Both the position numbers and the translations under genes were made by a program. This document shows positions 1,705 to 14,262 of a stretch of 14,262 bases of DNA, one piece after another. A model generated the notes under the pieces. It worked only from the letters and a program-made list of their open reading frames with translations, was not told the DNA's origin and searched no databases. The stretch is from a virus (lineage: Duplodnaviria > Heunggongvirae > Uroviricota > Caudoviricetes). The stretch spans positions 1 through 14,262 of IMG/VR virus record IMGVR_UViG_2695420747_000011; one strand, given 5' to 3'. Each line of letters begins with the position of its first letter. The first letter of the stretch is position 1.

Positions 1705-1860
1705 TTACTCCTCAGGTTCGTAAGCTGTGAAGACAGCGACCTCCGTCTGGCCGGTTCGGATTCGTACCTCGCAGAGGTCTTTCCTCGTTACCAGTGCCGT
1801 CACCATGACGGTTAAACAGATGACGATCAGGGCGATTAGCATCGCCTTTTGCTGCTTCAT
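1705..1860 (-). CDS. hok: Hok/Gef-family type I toxin (51 aa, membrane-active)
   Basis: MKQQKAMLIALIVICLTVMVTALVTRKDLCEVRIRTGQTEVAVFTAYEPEE has the typical Hok/Gef/RelF N-terminal TM helix plus the conserved C...C periplasmic tail. It is near-identical to what I recall for HokD/RelF. SD AAGGAG lies about 9 nt upstream of ATG 1860. Confidence 0.85.
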   Translation of the reverse strand: MKQQKAMLIALIVICLTVMVTALVTRKDLCEVRIRTGQTEVAVFTAYEPEE

Positions 1861-1917
1861 AGCCTGCTTCTCCTTGCCTTTCGGCACGTAAGAGGCTAAC
1901 CTACGTGTGTAGAGCAT
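1705..1917 (-). CDS. mok: mok-like overlapping reading frame (in-frame N-terminal extension of hok, 70 codons)
   Basis: The track ORF MLYTRRLASYVPKGKEKQA-MKQQKAM... starts 57 nt upstream of the hok ATG in the same frame, as in mokC/hokC. By analogy it would couple hok translation. Confidence 0.55.
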   Translation of the reverse strand: MLYTRRLASYVPKGKEKQAMKQQKAMLIALIVICLTVMVTALVTRKDLCEVRIRTGQTEVAVFTAYEPEE

Positions 1918-2151
1918 AGATATGGCCTCAGATTAATGTTAAGCGTCTTGCCGGACGCGTAATGTTAACTGGGGCTTTTCTCTATCTGCCTTTTGGTGTT
2001 CATGCCTGAGACAGATAGCCTCAAGCACCCGCTGCAATTCTACTTAACTCTCCTTTTCCCGCAAACCGTTTTTATCCCCAGCGGCAAATCGAATACACCA
2101 CCAGCGCCACCGCCATCGCAATTCCTACCGTTGTTAATGCTTCAGGCCAGC

Positions 2152-3054
2152 TCATTGATTCACCTCCTGCGGCGGTTCTGGTAGCGGCATCCAGTGTGAC
2201 GGTTTCCACGACGCACCAGGAATTATCCACCCATCATTAGCGTCAGGATGCCCGGGGATGTAAGTAGCCCATTTCATTCGCCAGTCACCTTTCCTGTCAA
2301 ACTCCACGGCAACAAGAACGGCTGTTTTGGTATTCGGCATTCGCTCACTACAGCTTATCCAACCATCCGGAGTTGCCGGAGAGTTGCCCGATAGTGCATT
2401 CTGCTCCAGTGATGCTTTTACAAACCACGCTGCCTGAACTATAACGCCATGAATCCAGCGCAAATCAGCATCGCGATCTTTCTTTTTCATCTTTTCGCCA
2501 CTTAAGGCCTTGCTTATGTGGCTGCGTACCAGGTCTTCATGTAATTCCTTCGCCTCCTCAATGGTGAAACCACCAGGCAGAAGAGCCGGAGTTACCGGAG
2601 AGCTGGTTGACGCTTCCGGGATTTCCCGAAAATTATTGGTTGACGAATTCTTGCTTTCCCGAAAGTTTCCGGACTGAAGCATGGCGGTGCGGCAGGCGTT
2701 CCATATTTCGGCAGCAATATCGCGCTCGCTATCGGTTAATTTGTACGTGGAAACATAGCCAGAGAGCATTTCTACGTTTTCCGGAGTTGCTTCTTCCGGC
2801 ACTACCGGCGCTGGCGGGGCGATGCGTCCAAGCAACTTATTTACCTCTTTCGCCATCGCGTCATATTTATCTAAATGGCGATTAGCTTCTAAGCAGACTC
2901 GGCGCATCTGATCTGAGTTAACTCGTTTAACTGGATCTGCTTCCAGCGATGCCAGCGCAATCCGTGCCAGTTCCATTTGTTCACCACGGGTAAGCCCGTT
3001 TTCAAGCGGGTTTTTAATGAACAATTCAATACGTTCTTTGGTAATAGTGGTCAT
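2152..3054 (-). CDS. phage protein with C-terminal DUF551-like domain
   Basis: 300 codons. SD AAGGAG lies 6 nt upstream of ATG 3054. The C-terminus (...DGWISCSERMPNTKTAVLVAV...W...WMPLPEPP) matches my recollection of the DUF551 signature common in enterobacterial prophages. Confidence 0.55.
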   Translation of the reverse strand: MTTITKERIELFIKNPLENGLTRGEQMELARIALASLEADPVKRVNSDQMRRVCLEANRHLDKYDAMAKEVNKLLGRIAPPAPVVPEEATPENVEMLSGYVSTYKLTDSERDIAAEIWNACRTAMLQSGNFRESKNSSTNNFREIPEASTSSPVTPALLPGGFTIEEAKELHEDLVRSHISKALSGEKMKKKDRDADLRWIHGVIVQAAWFVKASLEQNALSGNSPATPDGWISCSERMPNTKTAVLVAVEFDRKGDWRMKWATYIPGHPDANDGWIIPGASWKPSHWMPLPEPPQEVNQ

Positions 3055-5160: not shown

Positions 5161-5641
5161 TGGTCGCCTCCTTCACAAAAATAATCCAATGTGTTTTATC
5201 GTTCTTACCGGTGCGCTGGCTGATGATTGGTTTCGCGTCGGTTAGTGCCAATATCTGGCGGACAGATATTTGCGTTTCATTCCATTTAAAAATCAGAACG
5301 CCATGTGGCCACAACACACGAAAAGCTTCTTTAAATCCCTGCCGCAAATCATCACGCCAGGTATCTTTATTCAACCGTCCATATTTCTTTCCCATCCAGG
5401 CTTTATCACCAACACACTCAAGATGCGGAGGGTCGAATACAACAACCGGAAACGATGCGTCTGCAAATGGTAATGCTCGAAAATCTGCTATCAGGTCAGG
5501 ACTGATAATCAGGCGTCGTCCATCACACAATGTGTGCTCTTCTTTTCTGATATCGCTAAATATCGCCCGGTCGTCATTCTTATCGAACCAGAACATACGG
5601 CTGCCACAGCACATATCAAGAATGGTTGCCGGTGCACTCAC
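5153..5641 (-). CDS. small SAM-dependent DNA methyltransferase (N6-adenine/N4-cytosine type, DPPH motif)
   Basis: ILDMCCGSR (glycine-rich SAM-binding motif I) is followed about 55 aa later by VVVFDPPH (catalytic motif IV, D-P-P-aromatic/H). Start set at GTG 5641-5639, which has AGGAGG 7 nt upstream and forms a GTGA overlap with the upstream stop. The track ORF extends to 5710 without an ATG. Confidence 0.6.
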   Translation of the reverse strand: MSAPATILDMCCGSRMFWFDKNDDRAIFSDIRKEEHTLCDGRRLIISPDLIADFRALPFADASFPVVVFDPPHLECVGDKAWMGKKYGRLNKDTWRDDLRQGFKEAFRVLWPHGVLIFKWNETQISVRQILALTDAKPIISQRTGKNDKTHWIIFVKEATSG

Positions 5642-5793
5642 TGCGCTACCTCCTGAAAATTCCCCTGATAAAACGCCAGTACGCGCTGCATAACTTCGCT
5701 CTTCCGGCACTCGCGACAGATTATGTTCTGACGCCTGTCGTAGCGACGTATTTCTCCGTCAGGTAATAGCCAGATAAGGTCCGGATCAACCAC
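5638..5793 (-). CDS. possible small ORF (about 51 aa), or the frameshifted C-terminal part of the upstream HTH gene
   Basis: C-terminal part of track ORF 5638..5961 (VVDPDLIWLLPDGEIRRYDRRQNIICRECRKSEVMQRVLAFYQGNFQEVAQ). Candidate GTG start at 5793 overlaps the upstream stop by 8 nt. Its 3' end carries the SD and GTGA overlap for the methyltransferase. Confidence 0.3.
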   Translation of the reverse strand: MVDPDLIWLLPDGEIRRYDRRQNIICRECRKSEVMQRVLAFYQGNFQEVAQ

Positions 5794-6061
5794 AGATGGT
5801 TTCTTCAGCTTTGCCCTTGAGAGTTTTTTTGCGGGCGTTTTGCCAGTCCTTGCGCGCCTGCTCAGACGGGAATACTCCGTAACCGGAATTGTAAACATCA
5901 CCACTGGCGGCCAGCTCCATGCATAAACGACCGACAGACGTATGACTGACACCAATTTCATCCGATAACTGCCGAATCGTGCCTCGTCCGTTAAGGCGTA
6001 CGAATTCCACGATCAGCCCTTTAATTTTTTCCCGCTCTTCTTGTGTAAAAACTTTTGCCAC
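5786..6061 (-). CDS. small HTH DNA-binding protein (91 aa)
   Basis: GTG start at 6061 with AGGAGG 4 nt upstream. Putative helix-turn-helix TIRQLSDEIGVSHTSVGRL. Lies immediately downstream of the O-like gene. Confidence 0.5.
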   Translation of the reverse strand: MAKVFTQEEREKIKGLIVEFVRLNGRGTIRQLSDEIGVSHTSVGRLCMELAASGDVYNSGYGVFPSEQARKDWQNARKKTLKGKAEETICG

Positions 6062-13022: not shown

Positions 13023-13271
13023 ATGGCAAGACTTATTCTGCTCACTGAGTGGGCAAAAGAGGAATTCAGTGAACCGGTCCCTACTCCGAGTACGTTAAGT
13101 AAATACGCTAAAGCCGGAATGATATTTCCTCTCCCCAAAAAAGTTGGAAGACGCTGGCGAGTGGATCCGCAAGCTCGCTTTGTCGGAATGGTAAACAAGC
13201 CGGAGGTGATCGCCACAGATCACCCTGCTTTGAAGAGGATACTGGAAGATGGCGCGCCCGCGAAAATATAA
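13023..13271 (+). CDS. xis: excisionase-like protein (Xis)
   Basis: 82 aa, MARLILLTEWAKEEF...KVGRRWRV..., resembling enterobacterial prophage excisionase-like proteins. It overlaps the integrase start by 23 bp, as xis/int does in lambda. Confidence 0.7.
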   Translation: MARLILLTEWAKEEFSEPVPTPSTLSKYAKAGMIFPLPKKVGRRWRVDPQARFVGMVNKPEVIATDHPALKRILEDGAPAKI

Positions 13272-14262
13272 AACCGATGTTCCGGGATTATCTCCGTATT
13301 TTGACAAAAGAAATAACAAAGTTTACTGGCGTTACAGGCATCCCATAACAGGCAAAAATCACGGTCTCGGCAGTATTGACCAGAAACTGGCAGAAACTAT
13401 TGCAGCAGAAGCGAACAGCCGTCTTGCCCGGCAGCAAATGGAACAAATGCTCAGTCTGCAGGAGAAAATTATTAGTGATACCGGCGGTTCATCAACCGTT
13501 ACCATTTTTCTGAATAATTACAGAAAAATTCAACAGGAAAGATATGAAAACGGCGAGATCAAACTCAACACGCTGAAACAGAAAGCGGCCCCTCTCAGGG
13601 TATTTGATGAACGTTTTGGCACCAGACCGTTAGATGCCATAACCGTAAAAGATGTGGTATCAGTACTGGAAGAGTACAAGGCCAGAGGACATAACAGAAT
13701 GGGACAAATTTTCAGGAAAGTACTGATCGATGTTTTCCGGGAAGCTCAGCAAACGGGCGATGTCCCGCCAGGCTTTAACCCTGCAGAATCGGCAAAAAAA
13801 CCGCAGGTGCGGATATCAAGACAGCGACTGACTTTTGATGAGTGGATGATGATTTATAACGCAGCGGAAAAGGATGGTTACTTTTTACAGCGCGGTATGC
13901 TGCTGGCACTGATGACAGGCCAGCGCCTTTCAGATATTTGCAAAATGCAATTTTCGGATATCCGGGATGGTTATCTTCATGTCGAACAGCAAAAAACAGG
14001 AACCCGGATTGCCATCCCTCTGGCTCTGCGTTGCGATAAATTAAATCTCACCCTGGATGATGTGGTGTCATCCTGCCGCGATTGCGTTCTTAGTCCGTGG
14101 CTATTGCACCACCATCACGCGAAAGGGACAGCTAAGCGCGGCGGGATGGTTAAGCCAGCAACATTAACCGTTGCATTTAAAAAAGCCCGGGATTCTGTGA
14201 GCAGAGATCTTTATCAGAGCGATTGTTCAGAGAGCAGGGGGTTGATACCAAAATTTTGCTAG
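13249..14262 (+). CDS. int: tyrosine integrase, lambda Int family; reading frame broken near the 3' end (probable frameshift or pseudogene; catalytic C-terminus not present in this frame)
   Basis: N-terminal MARPRKYKTD... Strong by-eye similarity to lambda Int through ...LMTGQRLSDICKMQFSDIRDGYLHVEQQKTGTRIAIPLAL (Arg box I). After AFKK the frame ends at TAG 14260-14262 without the HxxR or Tyr motifs, while the frame starting at 14181 encodes ...FCEQRSLSERLFREQGVDTKILL (box II-like) and is open to the window edge. Confidence 0.7.
   Translation: MARPRKYKTDVPGLSPYFDKRNNKVYWRYRHPITGKNHGLGSIDQKLAETIAAEANSRLARQQMEQMLSLQEKIISDTGGSSTVTIFLNNYRKIQQERYENGEIKLNTLKQKAAPLRVFDERFGTRPLDAITVKDVVSVLEEYKARGHNRMGQIFRKVLIDVFREAQQTGDVPPGFNPAESAKKPQVRISRQRLTFDEWMMIYNAAEKDGYFLQRGMLLALMTGQRLSDICKMQFSDIRDGYLHVEQQKTGTRIAIPLALRCDKLNLTLDDVVSSCRDCVLSPWLLHHHHAKGTAKRGGMVKPATLTVAFKKARDSVSRDLYQSDCSESRGLIPKFC

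Follow-up and report, generated by a model that had tools for sequence, protein, structure and literature searches.

A probable 43-bp internal deletion in the integrase gene of an ompW-inserted PPompW prophage of Escherichia coli

At the right end of the window (the whole 14,262-nucleotide stretch of viral DNA analyzed here, IMG/VR record IMGVR_UViG_2695420747_000011), an integrase gene starts in one reading frame and its remainder lies in another. This locus raises the question of what caused the change of frame and what it means for the prophage. We put a probability of about 0.86 on the answer that the lambda-type int (intE) of a PPompW prophage inserted at ompW carries a real 43-bp internal deletion (14197-14200) in one isolate, with a predicted loss of excision.

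The two reading frames of int and the missing 43 bases

The occurrence of the features discussed here is shown in Table 1. The first-pass annotation of the window had listed the int ORF with its TAG stop, a run of six adenines (A6), a TAA closing the second frame, and a frame open from there to the window end, and all of them were found in the sequence. Without any stop, that second frame encodes KSPGFCEQRSLSERLFREQGVDTKILL. The start of int overlaps the end of xis by 23 nt, and xis is annotated as excisionase WP_000113189.1 or xisE in the three loci with an intact int that were used for comparison (L001, L002, and L003).

Table 1. Position of the features of the window, with the basis of each assignment
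Feature	Position	Strand	Basis
hok/sok-type toxin-antitoxin	1705..2030	-	Rfam sok 1855-2030 (117 bits) beside hokD-like ORF 1705-1860
Continuous 300-aa ORF, DUF551 domain at C terminus	2152..3054	-	
DUF977 gene, split region	5638..6061	-	ORF 5786-6061 (Pfam DUF977, profile positions 2-81), overlapped by ORF 5638-5961 (79-134)
A-run of the DUF977 gene	5824..5830		Alignment to WP_001151262.1
DicF antisense sRNA	9789..9840	+	Rfam RF00039, 76.7 bits
dicB homologue	about 10015..10203		
DUF1482 gene	about 10200..10391		
104-bp segment	10262..10365		Comparison with AF39
xis (excisionase, 82 aa), intact	13023..13271	+	ORF; Pfam PF07825 Exc, E=1.3e-07
int ORF, 337 aa, TAG stop at 14260-14262	13249..14262	+	Window ORFs, translation
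Native int 5' part, M1-V317	13249..14199	+	100% identical to intact gene up to junction
TAA closing the second frame	14178..14180		Translation
A6 run, codons K311 and K312, same as intact genes	14179..14184	+	Shared 28-mer
Second frame, open to the window end	from 14181		Translation
Cys codon TGT across the junction	14196..14198		
Junction of the 43-bp deletion	14197..14200	+	Global alignment, BLAST vs L001 and L003
First native codon of the second frame, GAG (E332)	14199..14201		Alignment
Stranded native int 3' part from E332, EQRSLSERLFREQGVDTKILL..., second frame	14199..14262	+	Identical to L001 4242-4306
Out-of-frame tail SRDLYQSDCSESRGLIPKFC and TAG stop	14200..14262	+	Translation

The intact integrase is encoded by a single uninterrupted ORF of 1,131 bp (376 aa; WP_000113674.1, BCI49261.1). 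Alignment to intact genes bore out the reading of an integrase whose frame is disrupted and whose remainder lies in the other frame, which is 100% identical to the intact 3' part from its GAG codon onward and is thus genuine integrase sequence and no chance match. The exact place of the change differs from what had been described. The native frame does not end at ...AFKK, but goes on for five residues (ARDSV) to V317 (14197-14199); the tail of 20 unrelated residues starts after that valine and runs to TAG. In the second frame, K-S-P-G-F is native codons K312-S316 read out of frame.

Global alignment to L001 and BLAST to L003 showed that the window and the intact int are identical except for 43 absent bases, TGGATTACAACTGGCGTGCTAATGGCACCCCTCCCTCTTTCCA, between window positions 14197 and 14198. 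The dinucleotide TG at both ends of this segment (2-bp microhomology) allows the junction to be placed anywhere in 14197-14200. The deletion takes out 14 codons, D318-H331, and with them the HxxR histidine; one further base is lost as well, and the frame shifts. Full-length matches in E. coli genomes and phage records accordingly split into two pieces, with 1,306 subject bases for a 1,263-base query. The cysteine that the first-pass annotation had seen in place of the expected histidine is no substitution, since its codon spans the junction and the His codon itself is deleted.

The frame switch had been assigned to the A6 run, either as a 1-nt indel in a pseudogene or as a homopolymer sequencing error. 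The deletion lies 13-16 bp downstream of this run and is the sole difference from the intact gene in the region. The run is wild type and not the switch point, because intact genes carry the identical A6 and flanks: the 28-mer GTTGCATTTAAAAAAGCCCGGGATTCTG, which includes it, is the same in the window, in L001-L003, and in the two source contigs (L004 and L005), and is followed by TGAGCAGAGATC in the window versus TGGATTACAACT in L001-L003. A 46-mer of the intact allele that spans the left boundary of the deletion together with A6 was present in 1,691 complete E. coli genomes (1,549 with matches of at least 99%). What made an indel at A6 attractive was the TAA just upstream of the run, after which the second frame is open, but this stop is incidental. 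Moreover, one added A would give ...FKKSPGFCEQR..., still lacking A313-H331 of the real protein, so that the run neither differs in length nor yields the protein when corrected. We therefore give almost no credence to an error or indel at A6; of the earlier proposal, the defective integrase pseudogene stands and its 1-nt cause does not.

A second explanation that centers on the same run is that a programmed -1 ribosomal frameshift, or slippage in transcription, at AAAAAAG produces a functional integrase from both frames. The heptamer A_AAA_AAG, well known as a slippery site from dnaX and IS elements, is present here, and what lies downstream is read in the -1 frame. The int codons, however, read TTT AAA AAA GCC, which leaves the heptamer out of X_XXY_YYZ phase, and homologues with the same sequence have an uninterrupted 376-aa ORF and not a two-frame layout. 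The fusion product would also still lack D318-H331 with the catalytic His. On the grounds of codon phase and single-ORF homologues we rejected this explanation, which is scarcely credible. Taken at the level of sequence, the frame change is real, and the integrase appears to be a pseudogene by a 43-bp internal deletion and not by a homopolymer indel or a programmed frameshift.

Catalytic residues and domains of the predicted product

The intact 376-aa protein aligned over residues 14-375 with lambda Int (5J0N, 1Z1G, and others; E=8.5e-56). In the alignment to 5J0N, lambda H308 and R311 fall on FHEQR, and H333 and Y342 on LLGH...DIY. The equivalents of lambda R212 and K235 (R226 and K249) are kept in the window ORF. 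The equivalent of H308 (H331) is deleted and that of R311 (R334) is out of frame; those of H333 and Y342 (H354 and Y363) are past the ORF's stop, in the second frame. The absence of the catalytic His, Arg, and Tyr from the 337-aa product, as proposed earlier, was thus confirmed by the lambda Int alignment and by Pfam.

The part M1-V317 holds the arm-binding and core-binding domains and the first stretch of the catalytic domain. The arm-binding domain, PF09003, is complete in the window ORF (residues 2-71, E=6.2e-22), and gives it the N-terminal arm-type DNA-binding domain of a lambda-type tyrosine integrase. Of the 172 profile positions of PF00589, the window ORF matches only 2-100 and the intact protein 2-169, and the full R-K-H-R-H-Y catalytic domain is not contained in one frame. 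The ORF thus has the sequence features of a pseudogene of the lambda-type tyrosine integrase family and not of a functional member.

A tyrosine recombinase without its tyrosine nucleophile is unable to cleave DNA. With the equivalents of H308, R311, H333, and Y342 missing, the 337-aa product is predicted to be catalytically dead; it should therefore not cleave DNA, and the prophage should be unable to excise via its own Int, judging by the residues known from lambda Int.

Because the arm-binding domain, the core-binding region, and xis are all intact, we also considered that the truncated Int is kept as a useful protein, with a DNA-binding, dominant-negative, or regulatory role at the att sites of related phages. 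An allele present in a single isolate gives no sign of selection, and the 20-residue out-of-frame tail and partial catalytic domain may destabilize the protein, so we regard such retention as very unlikely. Less likely still is that the truncated Int is made in stable form and, at att sites of the ompW type, inhibits in a trans-dominant manner or plays an architectural role. If this were true, PPompW-type phages entering the cell would be kept from integrating or excising, and superinfection interference would here derive from an integrase.

Source contig, chromosomal context, and distribution of the allele

The exact 337-aa product was also found on contig CXZO01000028.1 (56 kb) of an E. coli draft assembly at NCBI (GCA_001284665.1) and on a contig of the Logan assembly of run ERR134546. 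The final 11,014 bases of the window are the first 11,014 of the CXZO01000028.1 locus, and by coordinates the window corresponds to the start of that contig (~14.3 kb) up to the stop of the truncated int. What it contains of the lambdoid PPompW prophage is the early region. Its left edge (position 1) is at or beside the contig start, within a RusA gene. The right edge, 14262, is the stop codon of the truncated int, and the source contig runs ~42 kb further; it appears to have been trimmed, as proviruses are, to the boundary of a called gene, and is not a DNA end. The premature stop set the window edge, and therefore the int 3' end, attR, and ompW fell outside.

Beyond the edge, both source contigs continue the second frame as ...EQRSLSERLFREQGVDTKILLGHSNQKMTDIYNDARGKEWKKLVI, which includes LLGH...DIY, to the native stop, so that the stranded 3' part runs to LLGHSNQKMTDIYNDARGKEWKKLVI and a stop; the catalytic motifs expected from extending the sequence were indeed there. 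Next in both contigs come the 121-bp att repeat of PPompW, in an exact copy (attR), and then ompW on the opposite strand. With the overlapping xis upstream, int has the context of a prophage end.

Of the 5,426 complete E. coli genomes, 1,729 contained the xis-int segment, most of them with an identity of at least 99%. Genome annotations name the intact int 'phage integrase Arm DNA-binding domain-containing protein', with an adjacent excisionase. The segment also matched 12 records of PPompW or Stx2a phages, in which the genes are named intE and xisE; in these records the intact int is followed by the 121-bp att duplication and then by ompW. In PMC8112680, a prophage is counted as PPompW if its integrase matches the PPompW int at >90% in both identity and coverage and it is inserted at ompW; the locus had 99.7-99.9% identity and 100% coverage to the 12 records, with ompW immediately downstream.

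The deletion junction itself gave a different result. A 46-mer across it had no match in the phage records or in any of the 5,426 complete E. coli genomes, and a 31-mer had none in IMG/VR viral contigs or in a set with one genome per GTDB species. These negatives are meaningful, because the positive control with the intact allele found its 1,691 genomes. The junction being absent from all other collections searched, the deletion allele is private to one E. coli isolate, with no second independent lineage.

Among complete genomes, that of E. coli AF39 is the closest, and 3 SNPs, a 104-bp indel, and the 43-bp deletion separate it from the window. The AF39 int is intact and belongs to a largely complete lambdoid prophage of ~50 kb, located between a partial duplicate of ompW and ompW. 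The window has a 104-bp segment that the otherwise near-identical AF39 prophage lacks; the DUF1482 gene is intact in the window and truncated in AF39. The 300-aa ORF with the DUF551 domain is continuous in the window, and PGAP divides the identical DNA of AF39 among three fragments, of which one is a DUF551 gene and the other two are partial pseudogenes; annotation and ORF structure thus conflict at this place. The window also has a hok/sok-type system and a DicF gene upstream of the dicB homologue, and the latter two are a Qin-like dicF-dicB cell-division inhibition module within the prophage.

An allele unique to the data of one isolate, and known from a short-read draft assembly, could be a sequencing, library, or assembly artefact, in which case the isolate would truly have the intact 376-aa integrase. 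The NCBI and Logan assemblies share the same junction although their contigs break at different points. They have 0 mismatches over 11,473 bp, and are therefore probably from the same isolate or the same reads; together they exclude an error specific to one assembler, but not a library artefact, and provide no independent biological replication. Clean 43-bp deletions are atypical of short-read errors. Comparison of the window with the intact gene revealed no direct repeats at the deletion ends longer than the exact TG, and folding gave no significant hairpin across the deleted segment (intact 71-nt region folded as DNA, -6.3 kcal/mol, z=0.51). Collapse of a repeat is thus unlikely. Overall we hold an artefact to be improbable, and prefer a real deletion in this isolate.

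Origin of the deletion, prophage decay, and comparison with known systems

Illegitimate recombination or slippage during replication over the TG microhomology is the simplest mechanism for the deletion and its probable origin. A hairpin as its cause was rejected, as the intact region folds no better than shuffled sequence. After the loss of the 14 codons and one base, the ribosome would read the 20 out-of-frame codons to TAG, and the product would keep the two DNA-binding domains and the first two catalytic residues without the last four. The prophage would then be locked in the chromosome, with no excision or re-integration by its own Int, unless a related integrase acts in trans.

A second inactivated gene in the same window favors the deletion reading. 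In the window the DUF977 gene is broken into two ORFs that overlap, and its A-run is A7, versus A6 in the intact homologue WP_001151262.1. By this alignment, the lesion is a true homopolymer +1 frameshift, the type of lesion earlier proposed for int. AF39 carries the identical DUF977 lesion, annotated 'frameshifted'.

PPompW prophages are reported to be lambda-like, to use a 121-bp att in ompW, and to be as a rule defective, owing to a number of gene inactivations and deletions (PMC8112680). A broken int in such a prophage therefore fits the expected decay, and this kind of event is well known. The coding sequence should be labeled an integrase pseudogene with a 43-bp internal deletion, and neither a 337-aa integrase nor a homopolymer error. 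Beyond annotation, its importance is small: the prophage of this isolate should be counted as incapable of excision on its own, which matters for any assessment of the mobility of this PPompW element, since Stx2a phages and T3SS effector loci can occur in the family (PMC8112680). The case also teaches that a stop closing an alternative frame beside an A-run can misplace a lesion, and that comparison with an intact homologue is needed.

Lambda integrase (PDB 5J0N, 1Z1G, 1P7D, and 1AE9) has the same three-domain architecture as the intact homologue, which conserves lambda R212, K235, H308, R311, H333, and Y342. The two differ in that sequence similarity is only moderate and the att site is ompW, and the window copy is without the last four catalytic residues. 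The closest known system is the PPompW intE (WP_000113674.1 / BCI49261.1; Nakamura et al., PLoS Pathog 2021, PMC8112680), with 99.9-100% nucleotide identity over xis-int and the same xis-int overlap, 121-bp att repeat, and ompW neighbor; in the window allele, 43 bp are missing and the product has 337 aa, against 376 for intE.

The cryptic prophages of E. coli K-12 carry int pseudogenes. Integrase-deficient prophages have also been noted in the PPydfJ group (PMC8112680). The window copy resembles the degraded integrases of cryptic or defective E. coli prophages in that a mutation of int would fix the prophage and that the element contains other pseudogenes (here DUF977). In contrast to those, its lesion is a small, recent, isolate-specific internal deletion and not an IS insertion or large truncation, and its nearest relative, AF39, keeps an intact int.
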